Virus record (IMG/VR): IMGVR_UViG_3300031555_001437
DNA length: 64,000 nucleotides
Source of the DNA: a virus
Taxonomy: Duplodnaviria; Caudoviricetes
Strand: one strand, 5' to 3'
Shown: piece after piece, positions 35,084 through 63,122 of the stretch
How the letters are laid out: every line of letters starts with the position of its first letter
How positions within the stretch are numbered: the stretch's first letter is position 1
Made by a program: the position numbers and the translations under genes
Notes under the pieces: model-generated
What the model saw: the letters and a program-made list of their open reading frames with translations, nothing else
What the model was told of the DNA's origin: nothing
Databases searched by the model: none

Positions 35084-35302
35084 TTAATCCTCCTCTGTAA
35101 TTGTTGCAATGTAACGACCACAAGTGCATTCATGGACACCTGGAGTGTTACTGCTTATAATCTCTCGAAATGCCTCGCACATGCACTTGTCCAGACTTGG
35201 GTCTTTACGAATACTGCACGGACACATGTAATTGTTAGCTTCGAGTTGTTTTAAAATTTCATTGAGTAATTCTTTGTCTTCTGTTTGTTTGATCCGAACC
35301 AT
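35084..35302 (-). CDS. Ferredoxin:thioredoxin reductase catalytic-subunit-like protein
   Basis: CPC...CMC...CTCGRY pattern (CPC/CxC/CxC of FTR-beta). Confidence 0.8.
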   Translation of the reverse strand: MVRIKQTEDKELLNEILKQLEANNYMCPCSIRKDPSLDKCMCEAFREIISSNTPGVHECTCGRYIATITEED

Positions 35303-35763
35303 TAATAATCTACACCTTTCTTGTAAATACGCTGATTAGAAGTAGCAAGTTTAATACCGTGTTGAATATTTCCATTGGTACTTAGACTTTCTTCGTATCT
35401 GCCGCATTTTAGATAATCACAATGTTCTTTAATAATTTGCGGAACATTTTCAAAGTCGTATCTAGTAAAAATCCAAACCTTTTTACCGAATTGCTTGAGC
35501 CATTTCAAAAAGTTAGACATTTCAGTAATATCCTGGTCTAATGGTTCTCCGCCAAAAATCATTATGTTCTCAATAAGTTCATCAAATGATTTTATTTTAG
35601 TTTGCATGGACGCAACATACATTTCGTCCATTTTATCTCCGCGATTAAAATCCCAAGATTCTGGATTGTGACATCCTTTGCAGTGTGGCGAGCCATTACA
35701 ACCCGCCACGTATATCTCAAACGCTTTATGCTTTAGTGTATATTGCGTTCCTATTATGTTCAC
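35302..35763 (-). CDS. nrdG: Anaerobic RNR activase (radical SAM)
   Basis: GCNGSPHCKGCHNPESW, GGEPL, SNQRI; adjacent to nrdD. Confidence 0.92.
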   Translation of the reverse strand: MNIIGTQYTLKHKAFEIYVAGCNGSPHCKGCHNPESWDFNRGDKMDEMYVASMQTKIKSFDELIENIMIFGGEPLDQDITEMSNFLKWLKQFGKKVWIFTRYDFENVPQIIKEHCDYLKCGRYEESLSTNGNIQHGIKLATSNQRIYKKGVDY

Positions 35764-37674: not shown

Positions 37675-37896
37675 TTAGTGCTGCTCCTTAATCCATTCTT
37701 GAAGTTTTTTTACATCATAATATACACCGTCAATAAGAGCAAACGGCGCAGATTTAATATTGTTTTCATCTGCCACGGACATTACTGTGTCTTTATCGTC
37801 AATAACGTCAAACTCAATATTCTTTTTCTTCATTATCATTTGAAGCGCATTACACTTCGGACAATGAATTGTATAAAACTTTACTCTTTCTCCCAT
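37675..37896 (-). CDS. Glutaredoxin/NrdH-like protein
   Basis: HCPKC, SAPF; directly upstream of nrdD. Confidence 0.85.
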   Translation of the reverse strand: MGERVKFYTIHCPKCNALQMIMKKKNIEFDVIDDKDTVMSVADENNIKSAPFALIDGVYYDVKKLQEWIKEQH

Positions 37897-38450
37897 AGTT
37901 GATTCTTCCTTTCAATTTCTTTGATTTTATTTACAATATCTTTCCAGTTGTATGCTCTGTAGATATCATAAACTTTGTCAATGCGCTCATTGTGGTTCCA
38001 CGCATAATCCAACACGACTCTGTCACAAATAATCTTTGTCAATTGATCCAAACAGTCGTCAACAAGCACGTCTGTTGTCAATAGACTCTTATCCATAATG
38101 CGGATAATATTATTCGCGTCAAAAAACGGATAATATTTAGCAATCCAGTCAACCTTCCACGCAAAATTCATTGGAGATGTTGCTGTCGCAAGATAGACTT
38201 CGTGCCCGCTATTAACGAGTGTCTGTAGCCCCCACTGCGAGTCGGGAATTGGCTCAAGCATATCCCACAACTCTTTTTTTGAGAAAAGACTGACCATATA
38301 ATCGGCATCATCTTTTGACATGCAACCGTAGTAATCATACGTTGTTAGGTCTTCCATTTGAACGCTCTTGCCAGTATGCGCGTTGAACATCTTAAGGACA
38401 CACTCTGATAGATTATTCAATACACTATCTATGTCCACGCAAATTCTCAT
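37881..38450 (-). CDS. 5'(3')-deoxyribonucleotidase (HAD family)
   Basis: VDIDSVL, DK...DVLVDD, AWN motifs; GAGGAGG RBS supports start at 38450. Confidence 0.85.
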   Translation of the reverse strand: MRICVDIDSVLNNLSECVLKMFNAHTGKSVQMEDLTTYDYYGCMSKDDADYMVSLFSKKELWDMLEPIPDSQWGLQTLVNSGHEVYLATATSPMNFAWKVDWIAKYYPFFDANNIIRIMDKSLLTTDVLVDDCLDQLTKIICDRVVLDYAWNHNERIDKVYDIYRAYNWKDIVNKIKEIERKNQLWEKE

Positions 38451-39028
38451 GTCTCGTCCTCCTCGTGGTTCTTCCACACTCCCTCTACGTTTGCAATCCA
38501 TTTAAGTACAGAATATGATTTTGCAAAGTCGATGTTTGGAATTGCATAATCAAAATCAAGACTTCTAGCCATATCGCGGAATTGCTCACGTTCGTCGATG
38601 GAACGCTGTTTGAATTTCATTCTGTCGTCTTTGCGTTTGTTGATAGCTCTGTGCTCCCGAACTGAATCTGGAACATTAACAAAAACCGTTACTAAACGCA
38701 GGTTAGGCAAATTCAGTTCTCTCAGATGTTTTACGCCGATCGGATCAATTACATAAATGTCATTTTCGTATAACTGATTAACTGTACAGCAGTACTTATA
38801 ATTGCCAATCTTAGTGAACGCTGCGATGCTACCAGAGTTCTCAAGTTCTTGATATTCTTCATCGGAAATAAATACATGAGTATCTCCCTCACCGACTCTT
38901 CGCTCGCGCGTAGTATAACTGATTATTTGACGAAGACCTGCGCGTTCACACAATTTATTCGCGAGAGAGTCCTTCCCGCTGGCGCTTTTGCCAATCAAAC
39001 AAAGAAGCACATGTTCTTTATTCTTCAT
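38447..39028 (-). CDS. gmk: Guanylate kinase-like
   Basis: GKSASGKDS P-loop; SYTTRERRVGE; VIDPIG. Confidence 0.88.
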   Translation of the reverse strand: MKNKEHVLLCLIGKSASGKDSLANKLCERAGLRQIISYTTRERRVGEGDTHVFISDEEYQELENSGSIAAFTKIGNYKYCCTVNQLYENDIYVIDPIGVKHLRELNLPNLRLVTVFVNVPDSVREHRAINKRKDDRMKFKQRSIDEREQFRDMARSLDFDYAIPNIDFAKSYSVLKWIANVEGVWKNHEEDET

Positions 39029-39752
39029 CGCCACAAATCAACTCCTTTGCATAAGGTAGTGTTTCAATCCAATCACACACGACGTGCCATTCAGTCAACT
39101 TGTGATGTTTTCTGGCATGATAGATATTAAGCAGATTTTCATAGCTCATAGTCACAGTACGCATTTGGTTATAAGAAGAGGGAAGAATTTCAATCATTTG
39201 CCGCCAGTACTTCTTATCTTTAGTTTGGTTGTACTTATTGCGTAAGCCATTTAGTACGGCAATAGTAAGATTAGCAATCCCTCTTGTGCTCAAAGGATAG
39301 CATCCATACACAATTGGCGTCTGTTCGTTTGTCTCATCGGTAAGATTATCATAACTAAAGTCTTCCAACGCAAACTCTTTGCTGTGGATCTTGTGCATAG
39401 TGGAGCAGGAGTTTGCCACCGTTCCTACCTTATAGGTATCCATTTCTTTCCACCAATACAGAGGCGCAGTGATATCCACGCTGACAAAAATCTGACGCAA
39501 AAACTTTCTGTGATCTGACCCAGCTCTAACAAGTCTTTTGGCAAGGTCCAAATCATTTTCTCCAAGAGTCATCCAGTCTGTTGTTATGCCGTCATAAGAA
39601 TCTAACTGCTTATATGTCATTCCGCTTGCATCTGTATAGTTAGCAAAATAACTATCGCTCTTATCCCAGCTATTCATTGGATTTCTTGCTCCACGAATAG
39701 CGTTTTCAAAATTCATTACGCTCGTTCTTTCAAGTTTAATCATCTTAGTCAC
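39018..39752 (-). CDS. ThyX-fold-related phage protein
   Basis: GARNPMNSW, HRKFLRQI, APLYWWKEMDTYK, SCSTMH, LPSSY, RKHHKLTEW; lacks the canonical RHR motif. Confidence 0.6.
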   Translation of the reverse strand: MTKMIKLERTSVMNFENAIRGARNPMNSWDKSDSYFANYTDASGMTYKQLDSYDGITTDWMTLGENDLDLAKRLVRAGSDHRKFLRQIFVSVDITAPLYWWKEMDTYKVGTVANSCSTMHKIHSKEFALEDFSYDNLTDETNEQTPIVYGCYPLSTRGIANLTIAVLNGLRNKYNQTKDKKYWRQMIEILPSSYNQMRTVTMSYENLLNIYHARKHHKLTEWHVVCDWIETLPYAKELICGDEE

Positions 39753-44550: not shown

Positions 44551-44625
44551 TGGTCGAGATGACAGGAATCGAACCTGCTTGATCTAGTTCCCAAAACTAG
44601 CGCGTAGCCAATACGCTACATCTCG
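44551..44625 (-). tRNA. tRNA-Pro(UGG)
   Basis: Cloverleaf; CTAGT-TTTGGGA-ACTAG; GTTCGATTC; encoded CCA. Confidence 0.92.
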
Positions 44626-44628
44626 ATA

Positions 44629-44704
44629 TGGCTGGGAGTACTGGATTTGAACCAGTGTAATGCGGCAGTCAAAGTGCCGTGCCTTGCCTCTTGGCGAACT
44701 CCCA
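44629..44704 (-). tRNA. tRNA-Gln(UUG)
   Basis: CGGCA-CTTTGAC-TGCCG; GTTCAAATC; CCA. Confidence 0.92.
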
Positions 44705-44712
44705 ATGTTGAA

Positions 44713-45385
44713 TGGTGATTTTTAACTATTTCTAGAGGTCAACCACCTTAACCTTGTTGTCTGCGCCAACAGACAACGAAAGGACTTTATATGACGAACA
44801 TTGACGCGCCCAACAACCGCTAATGATAAGTAGCGATACGGTATTTTTAGATGCTCCGCAGCCTCAAATAATGTGAACCCGACCTTTTATGTGTCGTATA
44901 TCGGGTAACGACTATCCCTGTTGTTGGCTTTTGCCCTTGTCGGGCTAACTTGTAGTTCAATATGGTTCACCGCTCCATATCAGTTCTCTTATGAACTTCT
45001 CAATCTGCGACTTTCATCTCATATTTATTACCCGCATTCGATGTTGTCTGTTCTTATGAATGATTGAGTTCTGCACTTTCAACCGCCAGTCGTTTGCGGT
45101 TTACGCTACTTTTAAAGCCGTGCGATTGCAACATACTTGTCTAACGTTGGGCCGTTCATCTCACTCCGTTACCACAGCTCTTATCACCTATCCGTTTATC
45201 AGCTTACGTATTTTTTAATTATTAACCACTTCTCACAAAACGGCGTCGGCTTCGTGGCACCCAACTCTTGATTAGGCGCAAGAGAACGCCACTTTGGATG
45301 GGTTTTAGGTCTCCAGCCCGACTTTGAACTTTCTTGTTCTGGCAACCCAAGAGAAGGCTACGGGGAACATCCCCGTTCGACGCCA
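44713..45385 (-). ncRNA. Large ornate structured ncRNA candidate (ROOL/GOLLD-like context)
   Basis: ~670 nt with no ORF of 60 aa or more, inside the tRNA operon; many hairpins and long-range pairings (GGCGTCG/CGACGCC, CCAACAAC/GTTGTTGG, GTTGTCTG/CAGACAAC, CCCGA/TCGGG, AACCGC/GCGGTT); ends in ACCA. Confidence 0.6.
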
Positions 45386-45390
45386 GGAGC

Positions 45391-45507
45391 TAGTCACTTT
45401 TAGATTGGATTCGAACCAATGTCTCCAGTTTATCCGACTGGTGTTCTACCTCTAAACTACATCTCTAATTATTTGCAGAGACAACATGATATTGCTGTAA
45501 GTGACTA
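45391..45507 (-). ncRNA. ACAGCAA-stem RNA E1 enclosing tRNA D/anticodon(GAU)/T arms (Y-RNA-like)
   Basis: TAGTCACTT-ACAGCAA...AAGTGACTA terminal stem; internal TAGTTTAGAGGTAGAAC, CCAGT-CGGATAA-ACTGG, ATTGG-TTCGAAT-CCAAT; no acceptor stem or CCA. Confidence 0.7.
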
Positions 45508-45510
45508 TTA

Positions 45511-45584
45511 TGGCAGGGGAGGAGAGGATTGAACTCCCAGTCGCGGTTTTGGAGACCGCTGGTTTACCATTAACCGACTCCCCT
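45511..45584 (-). tRNA. tRNA-Trp(CCA)
   Basis: GCGGT-CTCCAAA-ACCGC; CCA end. Confidence 0.92.
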
Positions 45585-45590
45585 GTGTGA

Positions 45591-45666
45591 TGGTGTGCCC
45601 TGGGAGATTTGAACTCCCGACACCATGATTAAAAGTCATGTGATCTACCATCTGATCTAAGGGCAC
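45591..45666 (-). tRNA. tRNA-Lys(UUU)
   Basis: CATGA-CTTTTAA-TCATG; GTTCAAATC; CCA. Confidence 0.93.
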
Positions 45667-45671
45667 ATATT

Positions 45672-45772
45672 TGGAGCGGAGTGACAATTTCAGTCATATT
45701 CGTACTTCTTAAGTTTCAAAAGAGTAACTATCCAGTCTACTTTCATAAGAAGCCAACTTATTAAGTTTCCGC
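45672..45772 (-). ncRNA. Atypical tRNA-like RNA with CCA end (101 nt)
   Basis: GCGGA/TCCGC + T-CCA; D-like hairpin, long GCTTCTTA/TAAGAAGT arm, TGAC-TGAAATT-GTCA T-like arm; abuts the tRNA-Arg CCA. Confidence 0.5.
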
Positions 45773-45848
45773 TGGTACCACTTGAGAGACTCGAACTCCC
45801 GACACAAGGATTAGAAATCCTTTGCTCTTCCGTCTGAGCTAAAGAGGC
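45773..45848 (-). tRNA. tRNA-Arg(UCU)
   Basis: AAGGA-TTTCTAA-TCCTT; GTTCGAGTC; CCA. Confidence 0.92.
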
Positions 45849-45851
45849 GTA

Positions 45852-45929
45852 TGGTCCTCGTGGGTGGGTTCGAACCACCGACCCTGCGCTTATAAGGCAC
45901 AAGCTCTAACCAACTGAGCCTACACGAGG
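45852..45929 (-). tRNA. tRNA-Ile(UAU)
   Basis: Ile-type body; GTGC-CTTATAA-GCGC; GTTCGAACC; A73 + CCA. Confidence 0.85.
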
Positions 45930-45932
45930 ATG

Positions 45933-46008
45933 TGGAGCAGCAGACGGGGCACGATCCCGCAACAATCAGTTTGGAAAACTGAGACTCTACCAATTGAGCT
46001 ACTGCTGC
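45933..46008 (-). tRNA. tRNA-Gly(UCC)
   Basis: TCAGT-TTTCCAA-ACTGA; U73 + CCA; variant T-loop ATCGTGC. Confidence 0.88.
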
Positions 46009-49224: not shown

Positions 49225-49629
49225 TTACCATTTCTCTTGAGCAAACCCATTTTCGATACTGTAATATATTTTTTTAATTTTGCACTCTTTGATTAACTGC
49301 TCACATCCACAACATGGCTTTGCCATTGCAAGTCGTCCGTCTTTATGCTGACGATAAACATAAATAGATGCTTTGCTTAAATCTACACCGCGTCGAATCA
49401 ACGGAATAAGAGCGTCAACCTCTGCGTGTTTGTACCCTGGACATGTGCAGCCAAATCGCCTTGTATCAATCTGAGCTTGAATACTATGCGTTCTACTATG
49501 GCTGTTCCGTCCAGATGAAATAATTTTGTGCCTATCTACAACAACACACCCAAGTTTATATTGCTTATGATCGCTCAATTCCGACATAGCCTTGGCAGCG
49601 TTAAAATACGAGATTTCAGTACGCGTCAT
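49225..49629 (-). CDS. Cytidine/dCMP deaminase-superfamily protein
   Basis: LGCVVV, HAEVDA, PCCGC Zn motifs. Confidence 0.85.
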   Translation of the reverse strand: MTRTEISYFNAAKAMSELSDHKQYKLGCVVVDRHKIISSGRNSHSRTHSIQAQIDTRRFGCTCPGYKHAEVDALIPLIRRGVDLSKASIYVYRQHKDGRLAMAKPCCGCEQLIKECKIKKIYYSIENGFAQEKW

Positions 49630-51722: not shown

Positions 51723-54700
51723 TTAAACGACAGTGTAGCTGGAGAGCCAAAGGTCTTCCTTACTGTAGTCTTGAGACCAAGTACCGTCCTCAAGTCTTTT
51801 CCAGCCAGGTTTTTTATCAATAAAATACTTGATTACTTGTCCTACGGCAATAGGCATTTGCTCGTAAGATTTTTTCTTGAGTTTGACAACTGTTGTTTGA
51901 CCGTTGCTAAGGCAATAAAGTTGTGCTCTGAATGTACTATAACGAGTGTCAATATCCATGATTACCGCCGTGTTCTGCGCAGATGGGTCTACATATGATA
52001 TATAACCACACATTTCCTGCTGCGTTTGCAGTTTTGTCTGCAATGGGATATCTGTATCTGGGATACAAGAGCACAAATAAGTAAGCATAGTGTTCATGTT
52101 TTCATCATCAAACTTATACATTTTTGCAGTTTCAGACACGCAATACTTACCTAAAATTTCAATTGGAATTGCCGTATTGTCTTTTTTTATTTGTTTTTTG
52201 CCACGAAGTGCGTTATATAGATCAATAATCTTTAAGAGCTTCTGCGCCTTTCCGAACTCAGAGAAGAAATCGAGCTTTACGAGTAAGTCGAGCTGTCTTG
52301 AATCAAGCGGAGAGATATCCAGAAAATCTATGAAACTATTAAACTTCATATCTTTCATTTCGTACAACTTATCGGATGCACTAGAATTCATGTATTTGAT
52401 TGACTCTAGCCCTTTATAGATAGAATTCGTTTCCTTGCTCATATGATAACCGCTGCGTGAATAGCGGAATTTTGGAGGAGAAATCTTAATACCAACTTTA
52501 TTTGCATATTTTGTGATAGCTACAATCTTGTCTTCCTTGCCAGTAAACGTATTAAAGGCTGCGGTTAGAAACTCAAGAGGATAATAGTGGCGCAAAAATC
52601 CACACACATAACCAATACAACTATATGCATCGGAATGATTCCAGCTAAACCCGTATGAAGATGCATCGAGAATAATCTGCAAGAACGGCTTAATAACTTC
52701 TTGGCATCTTTCTTTGGTTATATCGTAGTGCGTTGACGAATACTCAATAAATCTACGTTCGATTTCAGGAAGAAGCTGTTCTGTGCCTTTTTTCTTCGCA
52801 ATACCACGACGAACATTATCGGACTCCGCACTAGAATATCCACAAAACTTAACAAGAAACTGCATAATGGTTTCCTGCATACATACTCGCCCAGCCTCTG
52901 GAGCAAGAAACTCATTTAATTCCTTGAAGCCATTATCGTAGAATACTCCATCTGCTACCTCATCACGATAACTTGCGCAAGCTGGTCTCAACAATCCATT
53001 ACCAAACGAGAACCACTTAATATAAGAAAAATTCTTGCTTTGCTCTTTCGCTTTAGCAACTACAGCGTCTGACATAAATCTCTTAAGATAAGCTGCTGCA
53101 CTATCAGACTCCCACTGGAATATCATCGTGGTGTCATCCCTAATACTACGCCAAACGGCCTCGTCCTCAAGATCTACGTTATCTGGGGTTAATCTATCAA
53201 TGCCAACAAGTTTACAACATTCATTGATTACGCCAATATTATCCAGACCAAGGATGTCTAACTTGACATACATCTGGTCATCTAACCCATGCATATCCAA
53301 CATTGATACAGGATAGTCAGATGTAGAAAGGCTACACAATCCAACATCGGCCTCGATCTCCCTGTCGCTTACAAGAACGCCGCTTGGGTGTGAGCCAATA
53401 GAAACAATTGTCCCAGAAACAATGTTAACATATTTGAAAACTTCTGGATACTTTTCCTTCCACTTGTCATCAATAGTTCCATCAATATTTACGGCATCGC
53501 TAATCTGTTGTGCTTCATCAAGAGAAATACTTAGCGCTCTGCACACATCCTTAATTGCTCCCTTTGTGGCAATAGTGTTAAACGTAATAATCTCGCTTGT
53601 CTTGATATGCGGTAAGTTCATTCTGTCGTGTAGTAGGAAGTATTTAATTTTTTCTCTATCTTTTGAACAGTAGTCTGTATCAATATCTGCATTGGTGACA
53701 CGCCCAGGATTCATAAAGCGAAAATAGTTAAGATTAAACTTTAAACTATCCATCTGGGTGATACCTAGCACATAAGCAATCAAACTGCCCGATACAGAAC
53801 CACGCCCATATCCACACTGGATGTCATTTTCGTGCTCCCACTCTCTCAAATACGTCTCAAGAAGCATAAAGTCAATTGCCCCGACCTTCTTGTAAACATC
53901 ATATTCTTCTCTGATTTGTTTCATAACTTGCGAGCTTGGATAGCGAGTCTTCAAGAACGGATGCTTATTGTAAGCATTATTTATTTTTGTTTTAAATGTT
54001 TTATCTGGATCATCATAAATATGAGGATATTTTGTACGCCTATCTACCTCAAACGTTTCAACCATGTCCGCTATCTTATTTGTGTTCTCAATTGCTCTAA
54101 GATAGACATCTCTTGGCAACGACCCCTGCTCTTCGTAAGCAGAGCATAACTCTTCATAAGACTTGAAAGTTAAATCCCATCCGTCTTCATCGTCAAACCT
54201 AATACTTTTGCTTAATTGTAGGATTTTTCTCCCTTCTGCGTGCTCACTATTAAGAGAGTGCGTATCTGTACCAGCTACGAGTTGTAAATCATACATCGTG
54301 CTAAGTTCATAAAGTTTCTTGTTATAGACTTTTTGATCATCGACGTCGTGGTGCTGCACTTCCAAGAAACACCTCTCTTTATTTCGAATGATGAAATCAA
54401 GAAATTGTCTTTGAATTGCTTCCGATGCTCGATTCAAAATGCCACCAAGACACGCAGTGGATACAATAATATTGTCAGACGTTCCAAGCAAATCACCCAA
54501 TTCAATTCTTGGAGCATAGTAATAATGACCATCTTTGCGGTTAAACGACTTACTTGCTAGCCTGTTAATTTCTTTTACGCCATCAAAATTACGAGCAATA
54601 AGTAAGCAGTGCCAATTGTCACGAATTTTAATCGGATTACCCTTTTCGTCTATAGATATCTTTTCTGTTACATAAAACTCTGCGGCGTGAATATACTTCA

Positions 54701-54893
54701 TCCCAGCCTTTTCAATTGCCTCTTTCTTGCCATGCCAGTCAAAAACCGAGCCATGCTCAGAAAATGCAAGAGCGGTCATATTGAGTTCTTTGGCTCTATT
54801 AACGTAATCTTGGTATTTTGTGATACTGTCGATGTTTGTCACGCAGTTTGACATATCTGAATGCAAATGCAGTACCGTATAGTTATTGCTCAC
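51723..54893 (-). CDS. dnaE: DNA polymerase III alpha subunit (DnaE-type)
   Basis: PHP LHLHSDMS; GRGSVSGSL; ADIDTD; HPSGV; KLDILGL; YGFSWNHS. Confidence 0.95.
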   Translation of the reverse strand: MSNNYTVLHLHSDMSNCVTNIDSITKYQDYVNRAKELNMTALAFSEHGSVFDWHGKKEAIEKAGMKYIHAAEFYVTEKISIDEKGNPIKIRDNWHCLLIARNFDGVKEINRLASKSFNRKDGHYYYAPRIELGDLLGTSDNIIVSTACLGGILNRASEAIQRQFLDFIIRNKERCFLEVQHHDVDDQKVYNKKLYELSTMYDLQLVAGTDTHSLNSEHAEGRKILQLSKSIRFDDEDGWDLTFKSYEELCSAYEEQGSLPRDVYLRAIENTNKIADMVETFEVDRRTKYPHIYDDPDKTFKTKINNAYNKHPFLKTRYPSSQVMKQIREEYDVYKKVGAIDFMLLETYLREWEHENDIQCGYGRGSVSGSLIAYVLGITQMDSLKFNLNYFRFMNPGRVTNADIDTDYCSKDREKIKYFLLHDRMNLPHIKTSEIITFNTIATKGAIKDVCRALSISLDEAQQISDAVNIDGTIDDKWKEKYPEVFKYVNIVSGTIVSIGSHPSGVLVSDREIEADVGLCSLSTSDYPVSMLDMHGLDDQMYVKLDILGLDNIGVINECCKLVGIDRLTPDNVDLEDEAVWRSIRDDTTMIFQWESDSAAAYLKRFMSDAVVAKAKEQSKNFSYIKWFSFGNGLLRPACASYRDEVADGVFYDNGFKELNEFLAPEAGRVCMQETIMQFLVKFCGYSSAESDNVRRGIAKKKGTEQLLPEIERRFIEYSSTHYDITKERCQEVIKPFLQIILDASSYGFSWNHSDAYSCIGYVCGFLRHYYPLEFLTAAFNTFTGKEDKIVAITKYANKVGIKISPPKFRYSRSGYHMSKETNSIYKGLESIKYMNSSASDKLYEMKDMKFNSFIDFLDISPLDSRQLDLLVKLDFFSEFGKAQKLLKIIDLYNALRGKKQIKKDNTAIPIEILGKYCVSETAKMYKFDDENMNTMLTYLCSCIPDTDIPLQTKLQTQQEMCGYISYVDPSAQNTAVIMDIDTRYSTFRAQLYCLSNGQTTVVKLKKKSYEQMPIAVGQVIKYFIDKKPGWKRLEDGTWSQDYSKEDLWLSSYTVV

Positions 54894-54926: not shown

Positions 54927-54955
54927 ATTATAACATATAATATTCATTTTGTCAA
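54927..54955 (-). promoter_or_regulatory. Consensus sigma-A promoter for dnaE
   Basis: TTGACA-17-TATAAT with TG. Confidence 0.85.
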
Positions 54956-54983
54956 GTACACCATTGCATTGTTTACAATTTAT

Positions 54984-55979
54984 TCATTTTGTCGTGTTGT
55001 TCTTTTCCTTGCAAAACTCTCTGTATTTTCTTGTATACTCATAAGCGCCACCAAAAATATTATTAACTGCAACAGACAGGCGCGGTTCGTGTTTATTGAT
55101 GACCTCTAACTCGTTTTCAAAATCCCTACCATAAGGACAACCGCAGCAACCAGTTCTCTTTAATCTGTATTTAGAATAACATTCGCTATGAACTACTCCA
55201 AAATGTTTCTCATATTCGCACTTATCGTTATCGGAATACCAAAACAGCGGTCTATAATTATCTGTCCCATTGTCATTGTTATCAAAACAGTTTTTATATA
55301 CAGTTTGTCTAAATCCACCCTCGGCCCTTCTTACACCAACAATGTTTAGATCATAGTTATTGTTTTTGATTAATTGTATTGCAACTTTCTTCTTTGCGTA
55401 ATTACAGCATTTATTAGAAATATAAAAATCGGGAGGATTTGCGATAATAAACTCCTTGAGCCATTTGTTGTATTTGATGTTAAAAGCAACACATGGTCTT
55501 TTGTTGCACCACCACTCCAACGCAGATTTACATTTTGGATATCGTGCATATAAAACATCAAAGTCTTCATCTTCCCATTTAAATCCGTGACGCTGTAGTC
55601 TCTCCATATATTCACTTACTCTTTTGCTCATAAATGGTTGTCCAAATTGTCTGCACGATGTTGGAATAGACACAATTGGCTTGCACGCTGTAATTTTTAT
55701 GTCATACCTTTTCTCCAAAAACTTTAAGTGTTCTTTTGTTGCGTTATACTCTAATCCAGTATCAAACCAAACATATTCTACCTTATTGCTTTTGTCACAT
55801 CTCCAACAAATATCAAGCATCACATCACTATCAGACCCACCCGACACAGAGCATATAATCTTTTTATATTTATCATCATTAATATATGTCCAAGCCTTAA
55901 TCATATTATCAATAATAACATCGTTCTTTGGACATTGCTTAATTGCGTCTTCTACGCCTTCAAATTTCTTTACTTCCAT
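54984..55979 (-). CDS. PAPS-reductase-family (PP-loop, Fe-S) protein, copy A
   Basis: SVSGGSDS, FDTGLEY, KCC..AKK, GVRRAEG..R, RTGCCGCP. Confidence 0.88.
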   Translation of the reverse strand: MEVKKFEGVEDAIKQCPKNDVIIDNMIKAWTYINDDKYKKIICSVSGGSDSDVMLDICWRCDKSNKVEYVWFDTGLEYNATKEHLKFLEKRYDIKITACKPIVSIPTSCRQFGQPFMSKRVSEYMERLQRHGFKWEDEDFDVLYARYPKCKSALEWWCNKRPCVAFNIKYNKWLKEFIIANPPDFYISNKCCNYAKKKVAIQLIKNNNYDLNIVGVRRAEGGFRQTVYKNCFDNNDNGTDNYRPLFWYSDNDKCEYEKHFGVVHSECYSKYRLKRTGCCGCPYGRDFENELEVINKHEPRLSVAVNNIFGGAYEYTRKYREFCKEKNNTTK

Positions 55980-55988
55980 ATTTATACC

Positions 55989-57065
55989 TCATCTTAACAA
56001 AGATATTGTTTGTACTAATGCGTCAACAACGAAATCAACTTCCTCTTTCGTGTTATTGTCAAACGTAAATCTGATCACATTGTTTTCCTTGATCCCAATC
56101 GCTCTAAGAACATGAGACCCGCTTGCATTGTTGCTATTACACGCAGAGCCAGACGACACACATATGCCTCGTTGCGCCAACATCAATACAAGCGTTTCTC
56201 CGTTGATACCATCAAAATAAATTGACGCATTATTTTTCAATCTATTATCATCGCAGGCACACCCAACCAACGAACAACCACTAATTGATGATAAAACTTT
56301 ATTCACAAAACAATCTCTGCATTCTGCTGTTGGGTATTCGATGGTTGCAATGGCTGCACTGAGACCAGCAATATATGGAACGTTTTCTGTTCCACCTCTA
56401 CGCGCATTCTCTTGCGACCCATAAATCAGAGGAGGCAGCTTTATCCCACGCTTTACATACAGCACACCAATGCCCTTTGGAGCTCCAAACTTTTGCCCAC
56501 TGAAAGACATCATATCGACGCCTTTTACATTAATTTTTCTATCTGGAATAATCTGTGTTGCGTCAGTATGCAAAATGCATTTGTACGAATGCACTAATCT
56601 GCTGATCTCAGCGATGTTTTGGATTGTTCCAATTTCATTATTCGCATATTGAATGCTTACTAAAGACGGTTGACTTTCTAATGCCCAACTCAATTCTTGC
56701 ATGTTAACAAACCCATTACTGTCTACGCCGATGATGGTTGTTCTGTCGCTATATGCCTCTGCAATGTTCATGATCGACTTGTGCTCAATTGATGTGGTAA
56801 CAAGACGATGATCACTTTCTTTTAAATAACCACAGATTGCATGGCTATTTGCTTCACACGCTCCAGATGTAAAAATAATTTCAGACGGATGAGCCCCAAT
56901 AAACTTCGCCACAGTTTTTCTGCCGAAATCAAGGATGTTTTTTGCATTACGGCCTAAAGGATGCAGAGAAGACGGATTTCCCCAGTGCTCTGTTAGGCAC
57001 TTGGTTATTTCCTCTACGACTTCTTTCTTGGGCTTGGTCGTAGCCGCATTGTCCATGTATATCAT
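55989..57065 (-). CDS. iscS: Cysteine desulfurase (IscS/DndA-like)
   Basis: YMDNAATT, GNPSS, NNEIG, HTDATQ, SGQKFGAPKG, RGGTEN, SSGSAC. Confidence 0.93.
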   Translation of the reverse strand: MIYMDNAATTKPKKEVVEEITKCLTEHWGNPSSLHPLGRNAKNILDFGRKTVAKFIGAHPSEIIFTSGACEANSHAICGYLKESDHRLVTTSIEHKSIMNIAEAYSDRTTIIGVDSNGFVNMQELSWALESQPSLVSIQYANNEIGTIQNIAEISRLVHSYKCILHTDATQIIPDRKINVKGVDMMSFSGQKFGAPKGIGVLYVKRGIKLPPLIYGSQENARRGGTENVPYIAGLSAAIATIEYPTAECRDCFVNKVLSSISGCSLVGCACDDNRLKNNASIYFDGINGETLVLMLAQRGICVSSGSACNSNNASGSHVLRAIGIKENNVIRFTFDNNTKEEVDFVVDALVQTISLLR

Positions 57066-58102
57066 CCCTTGGTCTCCTTTTTCTGTTTCTTCTTTTCGTC
57101 GCGAAAAGCCCTATATCTTCTTGTGTAATCGTATGCGTCCTTAAAAATATTGCTAATAGCCTTATAAAGCTTAGGTTCATATTTTTCAATCGCTAGCAGA
57201 TCTATTTCGAACCGAGCATTAAAGGGGCAGCCAGCACATCCAGTTCTCAAAAAACCATAATCTGTATAACATCTACTATGCTCTACTTTATAAAACTCTT
57301 CATATTCCAATCTGTCTTGATTGGTGAACCAATATATCGGATAAAAATCATCATATGCCTTTGATTTGTCAGAGCTATCTGATGTATTGTCCGAAAAACA
57401 AGACTTAATAGCTGTTGCTCTGACTCCACCCTCGGCTTTTCTCAATCCTAAGCACTTTAAATCTATGTGAGACTCTTTTTCATATAATTTACTGGGGTTC
57501 TTTTTCGCTCCTTCGCAGCATCTTGGAGAAACCAAAAAGGTGGGAGGGTTTGCGATCATAAATTCTTTCAAAAACGCCATGTGGTTAATGTTGTAGTCTG
57601 GCTTAGTATTACACCACCATTTTAAAGCGCTTTTACAATGCGGATACTTGGCAACCAACTCTTCATAACTCTTTGGACCATCGTTTGCAAAATCAAAATT
57701 ATTGTTTTGTAACGTTCGTATTTTACCAGACGCATCTTTACTTAAAAACGGAATGCCATACTGTCTACATCCAAGAGGGACAGGCACCGACGATCTCAAT
57801 CTTTTAATTGATATATGGTATTTCTCTTCAAGATACGTAAGATGGTCTTTGGTTGCTTGGTACTCGATTCCAGTGTCAAAAAACACATACTCAATTTTAT
57901 TGTCCTTATCCACTCTCCATAACACATCCAGCATCACGTCACTATCGGCTCCACCAGAGACAGAGCAGAAAACTTTCTTATATTTATCGTCATTAATTAC
58001 GCTGTATGCTTTTATCAAACTTTCTTTTATTGTTTTATTTTGAGGGCAATTCTCAAGCAAATCCGTCAGATCTGACACCCTCTTTATTTCTTGCGCGCTC
58101 AT
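57062..58102 (-). CDS. PAPS-reductase-family (PP-loop, Fe-S) protein, copy B
   Basis: SVSGGADS, FDTGIEY, RCC..AKK, GLRKAEG..R, RTGCAGCP. Confidence 0.88.
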   Translation of the reverse strand: MSAQEIKRVSDLTDLLENCPQNKTIKESLIKAYSVINDDKYKKVFCSVSGGADSDVMLDVLWRVDKDNKIEYVFFDTGIEYQATKDHLTYLEEKYHISIKRLRSSVPVPLGCRQYGIPFLSKDASGKIRTLQNNNFDFANDGPKSYEELVAKYPHCKSALKWWCNTKPDYNINHMAFLKEFMIANPPTFLVSPRCCEGAKKNPSKLYEKESHIDLKCLGLRKAEGGVRATAIKSCFSDNTSDSSDKSKAYDDFYPIYWFTNQDRLEYEEFYKVEHSRCYTDYGFLRTGCAGCPFNARFEIDLLAIEKYEPKLYKAISNIFKDAYDYTRRYRAFRDEKKKQKKETKG

Positions 58103-58117
58103 AACATTGCCTCCGAT

Positions 58118-59758
58118 TCATTTTGTCGTGTAAAAATCATAGTCGCTCATAGTTAGCTGCAGATAATTGTTTCTGCCATATCTTACTTTGCTCAGAGTTC
58201 CAACTCCAACGATCTCTCCATTTTGCGGAGCACTCTCCCAAGTTCTATCATTCCAAGATACAAGCAATAGCCCGCTGTCATTATCTATGAACTTGCTGTG
58301 CTTTCCACCGCTCATGAACGCAGACTGATAATCATCACTTCTGATTAACACCGTTACGGGTTCAAAATCTGCTCCAGAGATACGATTGATTGCAGATAGC
58401 TGACGAATTAAATATTCGTTAACTTGGTTTGCATAAATCTCAATGTCGGCTTCAACTTTGACCGAGAACTCGACATCAGTAAGAACATCCTCGATTGCAA
58501 TCTTAAAATCTTCAAATTTATCTACGTCAATAAATGCTCCGCTTGCAAGAGGATGCCCTTGACATACACATAACCCAGTTTGATTAGCAATGTCAAGCAT
58601 ATCCTCTACCCCTATTGCACGCATACTGCCACTATATTCATGTTTAATAATTTCGCCAGTTTCATCATCTAGTTCAATTTTTTCGCGCAAAACAAACAGC
58701 GGTCGCTGATATTGGCTGAGGAGCTTATTCGCAACTAATCCAGAAACCGATGCGTCCACATCGTTTGGCAACATGAAAAACATACACTTTCTGTCAAGTT
58801 GATCTTCTGCCTGTTGAACGACGTTGTCCATCAACTCCGCAACAATATTGTTCTGCAACTCTCTACATCCTCTCAAATCTGAAATCAGCGCATCCATCTC
58901 ATCCTCGTCATCTGTGAGAAAAAGTTCCATGGCTTTTGTGTTTTGACCAATTCTCATAGCCGCATTAACAAGAGGCGCCACGCTAAAACTGATTGCTGTA
59001 CTGTCGAACGCATAGCTGCCCACCACCTTTTTAATCAGCTGATGGTCGTAATATTTTAATCCTCGATATACGATATACCGATTTTCTGGCGAGTTCATCG
59101 ACGTCATATCCGCCACCAGGCCAAACGCACCATACAACCATAGGTTAAGTTCATTTGCATAGTCTTCAAGATTCATGTGGTCTGCATATAACACATACTT
59201 CAACGCCACACCAGCTCCCGAAAGCTCTTTATTTGGATAATAGTTAGCCGAACTTACCAACACAAACGGCAAATCTGACTCCAATAATCTTCTCTCTGGA
59301 ATGTGATGGTCAAACACACAGAGTCTCACGCCAGTAGAAAGTATTTTCTCATATACCGCAGGATCATTATTTATAGAATCGACAATTATCATCACATCAA
59401 CATCTTTGAGTAACTCCAAGTCAAAATTCTCTGCTCCGTGCTCCTTGCCTTGATTGATTACGCACTGTACGTCTGCTCCACGTGCTCTCAGATATCTAAC
59501 CATGATTGCGTTAGCACTACATCCGTCGACGTCAACGTCAGCCAGCACCAAGAATTTCTCTCCCATAGTAATTGCGTCTTCTATGGTAACATACGCTTCG
59601 TGTAGACCAATAAGTTCGTCAAAGTCAACCATATCGTCTTCTGTAGGAGCCAAAAACGCGCTCAAATCATCAATACCGCGACTTTGAAGTATTGCCTCGA
59701 TAATTTCTTCATCGTCCATACTCGTTCCGTCAATACGAGCAGTTAATTGTTTAATCAT
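58118..59758 (-). CDS. recJ: RecJ-like DHH ssDNA exonuclease
   Basis: DVDVDG, DHH, SGAGV, ADM, GSMR, GH motifs. Confidence 0.9.
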   Translation of the reverse strand: MIKQLTARIDGTSMDDEEIIEAILQSRGIDDLSAFLAPTEDDMVDFDELIGLHEAYVTIEDAITMGEKFLVLADVDVDGCSANAIMVRYLRARGADVQCVINQGKEHGAENFDLELLKDVDVMIIVDSINNDPAVYEKILSTGVRLCVFDHHIPERRLLESDLPFVLVSSANYYPNKELSGAGVALKYVLYADHMNLEDYANELNLWLYGAFGLVADMTSMNSPENRYIVYRGLKYYDHQLIKKVVGSYAFDSTAISFSVAPLVNAAMRIGQNTKAMELFLTDDEDEMDALISDLRGCRELQNNIVAELMDNVVQQAEDQLDRKCMFFMLPNDVDASVSGLVANKLLSQYQRPLFVLREKIELDDETGEIIKHEYSGSMRAIGVEDMLDIANQTGLCVCQGHPLASGAFIDVDKFEDFKIAIEDVLTDVEFSVKVEADIEIYANQVNEYLIRQLSAINRISGADFEPVTVLIRSDDYQSAFMSGGKHSKFIDNDSGLLLVSWNDRTWESAPQNGEIVGVGTLSKVRYGRNNYLQLTMSDYDFYTTK

Positions 59759-60020
59759 ATTCACCACGCTCCAACTCTTTAATTCTTCTATCTAAAGCGT
59801 CTCTTTGCTTCTTCAATAGCTGTACATCAATTGGTTTAAACATACCCCAATCGCCGTGCGCACCACACCACCAATGGTCTTCACAACCTTCGGAAGAGAT
59901 TGATCCTGAGCCAAACCAATAAAAATCTTCAACCATCTCAATACAGTCTGTCTCTCTTGGACTTCCAACGTGATTGGCGCACAAGTGTCTTCTTTGACAT
60001 TGACTGCTACAACAAACCAT
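59751..60020 (-). CDS. Hypothetical Cys-rich protein
   Basis: GGAGG RBS; operon coupling. Confidence 0.6.
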   Translation of the reverse strand: MVCCSSQCQRRHLCANHVGSPRETDCIEMVEDFYWFGSGSISSEGCEDHWWCGAHGDWGMFKPIDVQLLKKQRDALDRRIKELERGEYD

Positions 60021-60541: not shown

Positions 60542-60725
60542 CTTCATCCTCCACGTAATCATCAATAATCACACAACCGTCCATCTCGTTGACCCCTCTT
60601 GCAACATGCTCTGCCGCAACATAGAAAAATGCGTTTCGATCCTTATATAAATTTTCGTTTGGAACTAACACCACGCAGTTATCTGGAAACTGCTCTAACT
60701 TTTCTTTGAGTTCTTTGACCGTCAT
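60525..60725 (-). CDS. Hypothetical protein (MTVKELxExL family)
   Basis: Common phage N-terminus MTVKELKEKLEQFPD. Confidence 0.65.
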   Translation of the reverse strand: MTVKELKEKLEQFPDNCVVLVPNENLYKDRNAFFYVAAEHVARGVNEMDGCVIIDDYVEDEDEGVH

Positions 60726-61762
60726 ATCTCATACTCACCTTCTGTTAAATTTTCTATCGGTTCAATTTCGTTCTTCAATATATATTCAAATTCCGCCTTT
60801 GTATCGTCGCAAGGTGCCGACTTGTTCGCAAGCGAAATATTGTTCTCCCAATTCCAGTATTTGATACATATTTGTCGCATTGTGCAAAATGTTTTCAGTA
60901 GGTCTGCATTTCGCTTTGTGTTCTCAATCGGTAGGCCCTTGTCTAAAAGAAAAGTGACACTCTTAGGGTTTAGAGATAATAGCAGCTTGACTTGAGTAGA
61001 ACTTAATGAGTTGCTCCCCAAAGCGACAACATTGTTGTAACCCCATGAGTCTAGTTTAAGTACTGACTTCTCGCTTTCTACAACAAAAACGTCGCTCTCG
61101 TATAATGAACTGTAGTTTTCAGAGTACCCAAAAAGAGTCTGAGACATTGGACACGATGGAGTCAAATACAAATACTTTGCTTCATACTCATCTGGCTCGT
61201 AGTTGCATCGACCCTTTATGCCAAGGAGCTCAGCTGTGCTTGTCCTAATTGGTAGCGTTATGCGTTGCGACTCCACACAGTATCCGACGCCCCACTTACG
61301 CTGCGTTGCGAGGCTTATTCCATCTCGTAACCATAGTAGACAAGGCGTGTTGCCATATTGCTTCAAGGTCGTTTCTGGATATGTTGTCACCTCAATTTCA
61401 CTATTTGAACGCGATATCTTATCATACAGACCACCAAACAATCCAGACCTACGCTTATAGCTATATAGCGAATCAAGATGCAACTCCTGCTTTACGGCAT
61501 TCATTACATCTCTAAACGGAATATTCTTGCTTTTCACAAGATAGTTGAATAGATCACAAGACAAATTACGCTCGTAGTCTTTGACAAATAAACTGTCGTT
61601 GTCTTGTAACCTAACAACAACTGCGGTGGGGTTCATGCCTTGTTCAAAAGCGCAGCGCAGTTCCTTGTGATTCCTGCGTATGCTATCAAAACCAAAGGCT
61701 TCAAGGATATGCTCTATGGACTCTGGTTGTTCTAACAGTTTTTCTTTGATATCTTCAAACAT
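60722..61762 (-). CDS. dnaG: Phage DNA primase (TOPRIM)
   Basis: RITLPIR, GIKGR, KYLY, VVESEKS, FLLD; GGAGG RBS supports start at 61762. Confidence 0.85.
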   Translation of the reverse strand: MFEDIKEKLLEQPESIEHILEAFGFDSIRRNHKELRCAFEQGMNPTAVVVRLQDNDSLFVKDYERNLSCDLFNYLVKSKNIPFRDVMNAVKQELHLDSLYSYKRRSGLFGGLYDKISRSNSEIEVTTYPETTLKQYGNTPCLLWLRDGISLATQRKWGVGYCVESQRITLPIRTSTAELLGIKGRCNYEPDEYEAKYLYLTPSCPMSQTLFGYSENYSSLYESDVFVVESEKSVLKLDSWGYNNVVALGSNSLSSTQVKLLLSLNPKSVTFLLDKGLPIENTKRNADLLKTFCTMRQICIKYWNWENNISLANKSAPCDDTKAEFEYILKNEIEPIENLTEGEYEI

Positions 61763-61781
61763 ATCCTTTTGCCTCCTATCT

Positions 61782-63122
61782 TTATCCCATTTTTGCTGCC
61801 GCTTGTAATAAAACATTGTGTTCATTTTGGATTTCTCCATCAATTACCATCTGCAATAACGTGCTCAATGTATGCCCTAATTTTTTCCCAGTTTCATATC
61901 CGATACTAATTAAATCATTACCGTTAATCGCTAAATCTTTAGCGGAAAAACACTCGCCCTCTTGAAGCACATCTTCAAGTAGTTGCTCAATCACATCTAC
62001 TTTTTCAATTCTTTCTGCACCGTATTCTTTCTTTTGCCCTTTGATATCTGCTCTACGTACATTCAAAAGTCTTCTAAATTGTTCTTCTCCAATTTTATTG
62101 AGCCATCTTTTAATGTACTTACGTCCGACTTCAAATGTGGCATCGTGATAATGAACCAATCCTGCTACGTCGTGTCGAGTTTTATTATCAAATCTCAGGC
62201 CTAGCATGATAGCGTCGGCTATCTCAGCACTTACTCTACCATGTCCTTTAAAATGCCTTGTCCCATCCTCGTCGTCTTGGTAACAATGCGGCTTTCCAAA
62301 GTCATGGAACAAAATAGCAAGTCGAGTTGTTAAGTCGCAAGACTCGTCATAACTTAATGCTTTTGCAGTATGGGTGAACACATCATAATCATGATACGGG
62401 TTGTTCTGCTGAAAATCTACGATGTCACACATTTCGGGTATAATTTGGCAAAACACTCCGACATATAAACGTAGAACAAACGGGAATCTGTTGCATATTA
62501 CCATTTTACACAACTCACTATTGACGCGCTCTTTCGAAATATTCTTTAATAACTGTGCGTTTGAAATAATTGCGTACTTCGTGTGTTCCTCTATTTCAAA
62601 GTCCATCTGACAAGAAAATCTCAGCGCCCGCAATACTCTCAATGCGTCTTCTTGAAATCTATCATTTGCATTTCCAACGCATCGAATTTTCATATCTTTG
62701 ATATCATCTAAGCCACCAAACGGGTCTATTAATCCCTCTTCATCATTGTAGGCAATAGCGTTAATAGTGAAGTCTCGTCTACTTAAGTCTTCTTCCAGGT
62801 TTGAAGTAAACGTTACTGTATCTGGTCGACGATTGTCAGAATAATCTCCGTCAATTCGAAATGTGGTTACTTCGTAAGACTCATCACCAACAACTACAGT
62901 TAGAGTGCCGTGCTGCAATCCAGTTTCAATTATTCTTTTATCATTAAAAATATTCAGCATCTCGCTCGGAGTGGCGGACGTGCAAATATCCCAGTCATTA
63001 GGAGTTCGACCAAGAATACTATCTCTTACACATCCTCCAACTATATATGCAGCGTGTCCATGGCTTTGTAACATATGAATTAAATCATTTGCATGGTTTG
63101 GAATGTTAATATTAAATTTCAC
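61782..63122 (-). CDS. cca: CCA-adding enzyme / tRNA nucleotidyltransferase with HD domain
   Basis: VGGCVRD, DWDI, EVTTFR, DLSRRDFTINA, EDALRVLRALRF, HDFGKP. Confidence 0.92.
   Translation of the reverse strand: MKFNINIPNHANDLIHMLQSHGHAAYIVGGCVRDSILGRTPNDWDICTSATPSEMLNIFNDKRIIETGLQHGTLTVVVGDESYEVTTFRIDGDYSDNRRPDTVTFTSNLEEDLSRRDFTINAIAYNDEEGLIDPFGGLDDIKDMKIRCVGNANDRFQEDALRVLRALRFSCQMDFEIEEHTKYAIISNAQLLKNISKERVNSELCKMVICNRFPFVLRLYVGVFCQIIPEMCDIVDFQQNNPYHDYDVFTHTAKALSYDESCDLTTRLAILFHDFGKPHCYQDDEDGTRHFKGHGRVSAEIADAIMLGLRFDNKTRHDVAGLVHYHDATFEVGRKYIKRWLNKIGEEQFRRLLNVRRADIKGQKKEYGAERIEKVDVIEQLLEDVLQEGECFSAKDLAINGNDLISIGYETGKKLGHTLSTLLQMVIDGEIQNEHNVLLQAAAKMG

Follow-up and report, generated by a model that had tools for sequence, protein, structure and literature searches.

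A three-gene cassette carried by a large gut phage encodes two PAPS-reductase-like PP-loop enzymes, P0003 and P0001, with a cysteine desulfurase, P0002, between them. The two PAPS-reductase-like proteins are not sulfate-assimilation enzymes, and we propose, at a little short of an even chance, that each of them modifies DNA with sulfur on its own, with a dedicated desulfurase as the source. The analysis shows the structure of the genes, the folds, the conserved catalytic motifs, the exclusion of CysH chemistry, the conservation of the cassette and the DNA-methylase context; DNA as the substrate, phosphorothioate as the product and the biological role considered below are inferred from these, and the sequence would also be compatible with a thio-base or another product.

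Among the accessory genes of phages and prophages that still lack an explanation, stand-alone 'PAPS reductase' genes rank with the commonest, and recent papers describe the function of the phage proteins as unknown or as sulfur metabolism (PMC11437467; bioRxiv 10.64898/2026.02.18.706556). The cassette constitutes a natural experiment, in that it couples two family members firmly to a sulfur donor of their own; sulfur-transfer chemistry is therefore the obvious hypothesis, and the cassette provides a compact three-gene construct for testing it. If phosphorothioate writing is true, the cassette would represent a virus-encoded, DndD/E-independent phosphorothioation pathway, likely serving counter-defence against phosphorothioate-sensing host immunity in the gut microbiome, and the annotation of viral 'cysH' auxiliary metabolic genes would change.

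The window, i.e. the whole stretch of 64,000 nucleotides that was analysed, displays the following features in and around the cassette.

60722-61843: primase, flanking gene of the cassette
58118-59767: RecJ, flanking gene of the cassette
58116..58129, minus strand: exact copy of the leader motif ACGACAAAATGAAT at the stop of recJ; GGAGG and the start of P0003 come next
57062..58102, minus strand: P0003, a-type PAPS-reductase-like PP-loop/[4Fe-4S] enzyme, 346 aa (PF01507, phrog_424, fold, clade a)
55989..57065, minus strand: P0002, class-I (NifS/IscS/DndA-like) cysteine desulfurase, 358 aa (Aminotran_5, NifS model)
54984..55979, minus strand: P0001, b-type PAPS-reductase-like PP-loop/[4Fe-4S] enzyme, 331 aa (PF01507, phrog_424, clade b)
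54982..54995, minus strand: another exact copy of this leader motif, within which the stop codon of P0001 falls; downstream boundary of the cassette
54927..54955, minus strand: sigma-70 promoter TTGACA-17-TATAAT (12/12 consensus, extended TG), from which the dnaE unit starts directly behind the cassette
51723-54893: DnaE, flanking gene of the cassette

An earlier note on this DNA had described three tightly spaced or overlapping genes between recJ/primase and dnaE, and the open reading frames lie exactly where it had placed them, all on the minus strand. P0003 and P0002 share 4 nt, at the stop of the former and the start of the latter, and the spacings are 15 nt between recJ and P0003 and 9 nt between P0002 and P0001. 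The gap of 90 nt between P0001 and dnaE holds the consensus promoter, and the leader motif is present in 16 copies in the window, as compared with 1.1 expected. The note had also reported that other sulfate-assimilation genes and DndD/E- or SspB/C-like genes are lacking, and this was borne out, as the scanned minus-strand ORFs of the window contained no cysD, cysN, cysC, cysI or cysJ and no DndD/E-, SspB/C- or BrxC-like partner; the lack of such a partner in the scanned part counts against modification of DNA with sulfur. Neither DndB nor BREX genes (BrxC/PglZ/BrxL neighbours) were found among the scanned ORFs of the window, which contains no unassigned minus-strand ORF longer than 250 aa, and a search of IMG/VR gave no close copy of the phage.

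P0001 and P0003 share 47% identity across 331 residues (E 1e-118) and match the PF01507 PAPS_reduct model (E 3e-13 and 6e-11, respectively) and the profile of phrog_424 (E about 4e-24, precisely 3.6e-24, and 1e-27), a large and mostly phage family without characterised members, to which both belong. The SGGxDS PP-loop, CC and CxxC motifs that had been noted in both paralogues are indeed present and are invariant across 64 homologues, the invariant residues of P0003 in this alignment being S49-G-G-x-D-S54, C195-C196, C235 and C289/C292. The AF2 model of P0003 (pLDDT 94) has APS/PAPS reductases as its best folds, with Z 17-18, and Foldseek matched 6vpu/2goy at E 3e-8. The CC...CxxC cysteines of both proteins align with the [4Fe-4S] ligands of Mycobacterium tuberculosis APS reductase. 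In addition, the proteins, of about 340 aa, have a helical insertion of their own at residues about 108-190.

Although P0001 and P0003 thus display the PAPS_reduct fold by PF01507, Foldseek and Z score, they fall far below the curated scores of CysH and APS reductases: 28.6-30.5 bits against the NF002537 cut-off of 154, 25.3-28.7 bits against the TIGR02055 cut-off of 235.3, and 21.1-23.7 bits against the TIGR00434 cut-off of 165.1. No cysteine after C292 is conserved among the 64 sequences (P0003 has none there and P0001 a single non-conserved one), and the proteins therefore lack the catalytic ECG(L/I)H motif that sulfonucleotide reductases have. Since both proteins are devoid of the C-terminal catalytic cysteine of CysH, they are not enzymes of sulfate assimilation.

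We compared the two proteins also with models of enzymes that transfer sulfur to nucleic acids. At E <= 0.01 neither protein matched the DndC models of PADLOC and NCBIfam. The SspD model PDLC02782 covers only residues 41-105 of P0001/P0003 (profile positions 2-64 of 277, 24-29 bits), the BrxP model PDLC02510 is matched only over profile positions ~123-215 of 779 (31-32 bits), and the TtcA model NF007972 only over the N-terminal 47 residues (18.5 bits against a cut-off of 272). No DndC, SspD, BrxP or TdpC structure was among the matches of the sequence and fold searches of the PDB, and in the ESM Atlas only members of the family itself were matched. The missed DndC model and the SspD/BrxP matches, confined to the first ~60-90 residues at 24-32 bits, speak against DNA sulfur modification, as does the finding that the family, being evenly conserved, shows no hypervariable target-recognition segment either between or within its clades. 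On the other hand, the cassette shows the trio of features of the DndC type, i.e. a PP-loop, [4Fe-4S] cysteines and an adjoining NifS-like desulfurase.

The IscS-type desulfurase that the note had seen between the paralogues proved to be a full-length class-V aminotransferase: P0002 matches PF00266 Aminotran_5 over residues 2-344 (E 1e-65), and its translation shows both the motif SFSGQKFGAPKG with the PLP lysine and the loop SSGSACNS with the catalytic cysteine. The best NCBIfam model was NifS (343.6 bits vs cut-off 530.75), followed by DndA (243.1 bits vs 480) and IscS (242.1 bits vs 643.2), and the SspA and DndA models of PADLOC gave similar scores (both E about 1e-100).

Coupling of the a-type gene to the desulfurase, or the whole triad, was found in about five related contig lineages with 71-99% identity. 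RecJ-a-desulfurase or the full triad is present in L182 (99%), L001/L002 (81%), L180/L181 (80%) and L179 (71%), and an overlapping desulfurase directly follows the a-type gene in all four a-subclade genes that were examined. The synteny survey thus showed that the cassette is kept as a unit in related lineages. In L001 the triad is instead located upstream of primase, indicating that it moves as a unit. The overlap, kept at each of the a-subclade loci examined, and the mobility of the triad argue for a direct functional link. The suggestion that the cassette is replication-coupled has its position as the sole basis and is weakened: the L001 triad sits elsewhere relative to primase and recJ, and, outside the cassette lineages, the nearest orthologues of the desulfurase are found in the recJ-dnaE slot without a PAPS-like gene.

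We propose that the cassette is a phage sulfur-transfer module acting on DNA. P0002 would draw sulfur from cysteine as a persulfide, build the [4Fe-4S] clusters of P0001 and P0003 and also supply these with sulfur. Each of the two enzymes would then adenylate an oxygen of the nucleic acid via its canonical PP-loop, and the adenylated oxygen would be exchanged for cluster-bound sulfur. A phosphate of the backbone is the likeliest target, so that a phosphorothioate would result, as is the case for DndC, SspD, BrxP and TdpC. An own desulfurase would make the reaction independent of the host's sulfur supply, and what the phage would likely gain is a self-mark or camouflage that protects its progeny DNA from host restriction, including systems that sense phosphorothioates. 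The idea of DNA sulfur modification, already put forward in the note, is favoured by the exclusion of sulfate assimilation, the fit of a desulfurase plus a PP-loop/[4Fe-4S] protein to the core of phosphorothioation, the retention of the cassette as a unit and the DNA-type context of the family described below; what weakens it is that the DndC, SspD and BrxP models are matched only at the PP-loop or not at all.

P0002 might instead be mainly a general supplier of sulfur and Fe-S clusters, to the NrdG activase, the two PAPS-like proteins and possibly host pathways, and the PAPS-like enzymes might act on DNA through adenylation, or in counter-defence in some other way, with a sulfur-free product. 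P0002 orthologues with 61-64% identity (L099, L100), the closest outside the cassette lineages, lie between recJ and dnaE without a PAPS-like gene, and more distant phage desulfurases (L012-L014) adjoin dnaE. Other phage desulfurases occur alone beside dnaE or among genes of no known function, and those of L007-L014 have no PAPS-like neighbour, their neighbours being uninformative. Since the desulfurases of L099/L100 and L012-L014 occur without a PAPS-like gene, a P0002-type desulfurase may have a role of its own. Conversely, complete sibling phages contain the b-type gene and lack the desulfurase. Both the solitary recJ-dnaE desulfurases and these solitary b-type genes weigh against DNA sulfur modification and in favour of a supplier, as do the presence of NrdD and its radical-SAM 4Fe-4S activase (NrdG) in the window and the precedent of DndA, which assembles the cluster of DndC (PMC8569181). 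However, the overlap of a-type gene and desulfurase, seen at all a-subclade loci examined, and the mobility of the triad as one unit speak against a mere supplier. To our knowledge, moreover, the characterised Fe-S PP-loop enzymes that act on nucleic acids are sulfur transferases, and two of them, TtuA and NcsA, are among the fold matches. We consider a supplier role with a sulfur-free product unlikely.

The context of the family points to DNA rather than tRNA as the target. C5 methylases overlap or adjoin family genes in L097, L003-L006 and L025/L027/L029/L041, and BLAST with methylase seeds found C5-methylase homologues within 10 kb in 15 of 78 family loci. One ORF encodes a fusion of a C5 methylase with the PAPS domain (P0126, L183), another family member is fused to an SNF2 helicase (P0127), and a double-PAPS fusion (P0124, L184) is followed by C5 and Dam-like methylases. 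Some members are encoded on small siphophage contigs, where their neighbours are terminase or methylase genes. By comparison, a tRNA gene was present within 10 kb in only one of 80 family loci.

These findings bear on the alternative that P0001 and P0003 thiolate phage or host tRNAs (s2U, s2C or s4U type), which would fit with the seven tRNA genes of the window, including Lys(UUU) and Gln(UUG), and with its CCA enzyme and RNA-repair toolkit (the window also encodes an RlaP-like nucleotidyltransferase, a Ro/TROVE-like protein and a phosphoesterase). The Fe-S PP-loop thiolases TtuA and NcsA are fold relatives (Z 10.8-12.7), and TtcA and TilS models gave weak matches to the PP-loop. Nevertheless, the APS reductase fold is closer (Z 17-18), the known thiolases belong to other PP-loop families with matches at only E about 1e-3, and the rarity of neighbouring tRNA genes, the small siphophage contigs and the DNA enzymes as fusion partners make tRNA thiolation quite improbable.

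A free (deoxy)nucleotide might instead be converted to a thio-nucleotide that DnaE incorporates, resulting in a thio-base in phage DNA, in analogy to the PP-loop/PLP pair YcfA/YcfC that makes 6-thioguanine. The cassette does lie in an arm for nucleotide metabolism and replication (NT5C deoxynucleotidase, guanylate-kinase-like protein, dCMP deaminase, dUTPase, NrdDG), and YcfA was a weak fold match (Z 8.6). That score is, however, far below those of APS reductases, most family members are solitary beside DNA methylases without a nucleotide-salvage context, and no phage DNA is known to contain a thio-base, so that we regard this route as very improbable. A long shot, too, is the boldest form of the view that stand-alone viral enzymes put sulfur on phage DNA, namely a thiolated nucleobase, for which the PP-loop would adenylate a base carbonyl to be replaced by sulfur from the desulfurase; if true, this would be a DNA modification known in no virus, and the two paralogues would serve two targets. 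That the cassette is a true auxiliary metabolic set for assimilatory sulfate reduction with CysH-type PAPS/APS reductases, as the names given by Pfam and PHROG and the nearest folds among solved structures (CysH and APS reductase) might imply, has a next to negligible chance in view of the missing catalytic cysteine motif, the canonical ATP-type PP-loop, scores of 21-30 bits against cut-offs of 154-235 with all cysH/APS-reductase NCBIfam models, and scanned window ORFs without the cys genes listed above.

Returning to sulfur transfer to DNA, the cassette resembles DndA/DndC and SspA/SspD in that a NifS-like desulfurase adjoins a PAPS-reductase superfamily member with a PP-loop and a [4Fe-4S] cluster. 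It differs from them in matching no DndC model and SspD over only ~60 residues round the PP-loop (24-29 bits), in the lack of DndB/D/E and SspB/C in the window, and in the ~340-aa size with its own helical insertion. TdpC is by itself enough for phosphorothioation (An et al., Nat Chem Biol 2025, cited in PMC12914056) and, by the account in PMC12914056, is a single PAPS-reductase-type enzyme that works via an adenylated intermediate without a DndD/E-like partner, which is the arrangement that we propose for the cassette enzymes. According to the same account, TdpABC is a host defence of extremophiles with TdpAB as restriction partners, unlike the present cassette, which is in a gut phage and has the enzyme doubled and linked to a dedicated desulfurase. 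By description, the cassette proteins also recall p0018 of Vibrio phage 44E38.1, a PAPS domain::Dam fusion belonging to an anti-Dnd determinant (Piel et al., bioRxiv 10.1101/2021.05.05.442762) and thereby ties a phage PAPS-reductase-domain protein to DNA methylation and to escape from phosphorothioate-based defence. The phrog_424 family includes p0018-like fusions and adjacencies (P0126, L097), whereas p0018 itself differs from the cassette in its fusion architecture and the lack of a desulfurase. The APS reductases of M. tuberculosis (CysH, PDB 7lhr) and Pseudomonas aeruginosa (2goy) are the best structural matches and have the CC...CxxC [4Fe-4S] site in common with P0001/P0003, which, unlike them, are without the C-terminal catalytic cysteine, have a canonical ATP-type SGGxDS loop and stand in no sulfate-assimilation context. 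TtuA, NcsA and TtcA likewise insert sulfur after adenylation by means of a PP-loop and a [4Fe-4S] cluster in a desulfurase-dependent manner, but they belong to another PP-loop family (ATP_bind_3) with a weaker fold score, and the phrog_424 family shows no association with tRNA genes.

The family is large, with 3769 relatives in a word-indexed search and 284 clusters (50% identity, E <= 1e-30). In a FastTree tree of 57 rows, from which about 70 redundant b-type rows were left out, the a and b clades are separate and old, each with 99% SH-like support. The note's 'clear paralogues' are thus upheld by their sequence identity, but not as products of local duplication, the tree having ruled out a recent tandem duplication as the source of P0001 and P0003. 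The possible heterodimer suggested in the note is not needed either: the clades are old and each type also occurs alone in other phages, and therefore an obligate a/b pair is not required. Prediction of the a+b complex with both alignments returned a score of 0.00, i.e. no answer, and bears neither way. The a- and b-type enzymes would accordingly act autonomously rather than as obligate partners, probably differing in target or context. P0001 is 62-66% identical to solitary copies in gut phages of about 150 kb and in prophages of Clostridia.

The earlier note had described, at 54984-58102, a cysteine desulfurase gene flanked by two paralogous PAPS-reductase-like genes with tight or overlapping junctions, and all three ORFs were recovered:

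57062-58102, minus strand: P0003, a-type PAPS-reductase-like protein, 346 aa (PF01507 PAPS_reduct, E 6e-11; phrog_424)
55989-57065, minus strand: P0002, class-V aminotransferase over its full length, 358 aa (E 1e-65; top NCBIfam model NifS)
54984-55979, minus strand: P0001, b-type PAPS-reductase-like protein, 331 aa (PF01507 PAPS_reduct, E 3e-13; phrog_424)
Near the cassette, replication side: DnaE, RecJ and primase
Near the cassette, RNA-related: CCA-adding enzyme, RlaP-like nucleotidyltransferase and Ro/TROVE-like protein

The stop of P0003 overlaps the start of P0002 by 4 nt, and gaps of 9 nt and 15 nt separate P0002 from P0001 and recJ from P0003, respectively; the 90-nt spacer between P0001 and dnaE carries a perfect TTGACA-17-TATAAT promoter. 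P0001 and P0003 are 47% identical (E 1e-118). The reading that we prefer, with slightly less than even confidence, is that a dedicated desulfurase feeds two autonomous DNA sulfur-modifying enzymes, which would probably be phosphorothioating.

The synteny survey proposed in the earlier note showed that RecJ/a-type/desulfurase or the whole triad recurs in the phage contigs L182 (99% identity), L001 and L002 (81%), L180 and L181 (80%), and L179 (71%), and that an overlapping desulfurase gene directly followed the a-subclade gene in all four cases examined. Since the triad lies upstream of primase-recJ-dnaE in L001 but between recJ and dnaE in the window, it has moved as a block; the cassette is a conserved unit. 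Desulfurase orthologues (61-64% identity) occupy the recJ-dnaE slot without a PAPS-like gene in L099 (4836-10167) and L100, and more distant phage desulfurases adjoin dnaE in L012-L014 (e.g. L012:5628-10756) with no PP-loop gene nearby; the link between desulfurase and replication module recurs in such phages. Because of these placements, the desulfurase seems to have resided in the replication module before both PAPS-like genes were recruited around it. This would be compatible with a general role in sulfur or Fe-S supply, with phage NrdG as one possible client. That such supply is its chief role and that the PAPS-like enzymes perform non-sulfur chemistry, we regard as unlikely but worth keeping in mind.

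The PAPS-like family is large and mainly viral, with 3769 matches in an indexed search, 284 clusters at 50% identity (E <= 1e-30), and Atlas clusters mostly from Uroviricota. A 57-sequence tree separated clade a (P0003) from clade b (P0001) with 99% SH-like support each; both clades are old, and local duplication as the source of the pair was ruled out. Clade b, the commoner form, was present as a single copy in 79 of 80 IMG/VR loci; these copies are 55-66% identical to P0001, and no desulfurase lay within 10 kb of them. It also occurs in Clostridia prophages, e.g. one in Coprococcus phoceensis. Two complete sibling phages lack a desulfurase genome-wide. Clade a is likewise found alone, in small siphophage contigs. 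The solitary copies suggest that neither enzyme depends on its counterpart or on a phage desulfurase; a heterodimer, considered possible in the earlier note, would not be required.

C5 DNA methylase genes overlap or adjoin PAPS-like genes in L097/L098, L003-L006 and L025/L027/L029/L041, and 15 of 78 loci had a C5-methylase homologue no more than 10 kb away, 5 of them within three genes. Fusions also occur: P0126 (L183:2977-5034) is a single ORF with an N-terminal C5 DNA methylase and a C-terminal b-type module 54% identical to P0001, and in P0127 the fusion partner of the PAPS module is an SNF2 helicase. In L184:6001-10057, the 654-aa ORF P0124 contains two complete modules, one b-type and one divergent, each with PP-loop, CC and CxxC; genes for a C5 and then a Dam-like methylase come next, all within the DnaE/RecD2/RNR/dUTPase module of another phage. 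In sibling phages of the window (L027:8136-12428, and also L025, L029 and L041; RlaP 68-73% and CCA 58-59% identical), the gene order is c44, a conserved 118-aa gene that belongs to no known family, the b-type gene and then the C5 methylase. The 429-aa c44 product is a PAPS_reduct protein very unlike the b-type (SMGKDS, CC, CxCxxxC, Cys-rich tail), and the pair represents a second kind of layout with two PAPS-like enzymes. This context favours DNA over RNA as the target, only moderately; the surroundings are accessory islands, and the family alignment contained no hypervariable recognition segment. Thiolation of tRNA by the PAPS-like enzymes is rather improbable, as just one of 80 loci had a tRNA gene within 10 kb, and synthesis of thio-nucleotides is more doubtful still.

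The AlphaFold model of P0003 (pLDDT 94) most resembled APS/PAPS reductases, CysD and the FAD synthase PAPS domain (Z 17-18), whereas Fe-S tRNA thiolases scored 10.8-12.7, and MnmA and ThiI lower. SGGxDS, C195-C196, C235 and C289/C292 were invariant in 64 homologues, and in an alignment with M. tuberculosis APS reductase the CC and CxxC pairs fall on its [4Fe-4S] ligands. No cysteine was conserved past C292 in this alignment; thus, the C-terminal catalytic cysteine of sulfonucleotide reductases is missing. Scores against CysH and APS-reductase profile models were all far under the cut-offs. These features place P0001 and P0003 among the PAPS-reductase superfamily's Fe-S enzymes that use ATP, and not among sulfate-assimilation enzymes; true sulfate assimilation is hardly credible.

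Phosphorothioation by Dnd, Ssp and BREX type 4 requires both a PAPS-reductase-type enzyme and a P-loop ATPase. The portion of the window that was scanned contained no such ATPase, consistent with the earlier note, which had seen no DndD/E or SspB/C-like gene; hence only a route like that of TdpC would fit. In the Tdp system, TdpC alone is reported to suffice, via an adenylated intermediate (PMC12914056). P0001 and P0003 did not match DndC, SspD or BrxP profiles outside the PP-loop. In a Vibrio phage, a fusion of a PAPS domain with Dam is a component of an anti-Dnd determinant (bioRxiv 10.1101/2021.05.05.442762), and a 2026 survey proposed PAPS reductases from phages as candidate anti-defence proteins (PMC13551039); other recent papers still read such genes as sulfur-metabolism genes or unknowns (PMC11437467; bioRxiv 10.64898/2026.02.18.706556). 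The DNA sulfur-modification system proposed in the earlier note is partly supported: the observation itself holds and the methylase adjacency and fusions moderately favour DNA, whereas the profiles of known systems are unmatched beyond the PP-loop.

The motif ACAC(G/A)ACAAAATGAAT occurs 16 times in the window (<=2 mismatches; 1.1 expected), on the minus strand at 34198, 40730, 43048, 43098, 49137, 54907, 54942, 54982, 58116 and other positions, 10-25 nt ahead of Shine-Dalgarno sites and start codons or directly after consensus promoters. Two genes, recJ and P0001, take their stop codons from exact copies (both proteins end ..TTK*), and therefore the motif brackets the cassette. A leader, processing or regulatory function is more probable for it than one as a recombination site.

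Other features of the window were:

32460-34007: large serine recombinase, at the coding-strand and GC-skew switch (about 32000)
34251-34784: dUTPase
35302-37673: NrdD and radical-SAM 4Fe-4S activase NrdG (anaerobic ribonucleotide reductase)
37881-38501: NT5C deoxynucleotidase
38447-39034: guanylate-kinase-like protein
44551-46008: seven tRNA genes, ~9 kb from the cassette
49225-49629: dCMP deaminase

The five nucleotide-related entries constitute a full nucleotide-supply module, one Fe-S client included. Six of the seven tRNAs have a wobble U (Pro UGG, Gln UUG, Lys UUU, Arg UCU, Ile UAU, Gly UCC), the other being Trp CCA; tRNA-Ile(UAU) is unusual for bacteria. The recombinase may indicate a temperate phage or serve inversion or integration. 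Since giant structural ORFs are present and the relatives are IMG/VR contigs of ~150 kb, the window is a piece of a large phage.
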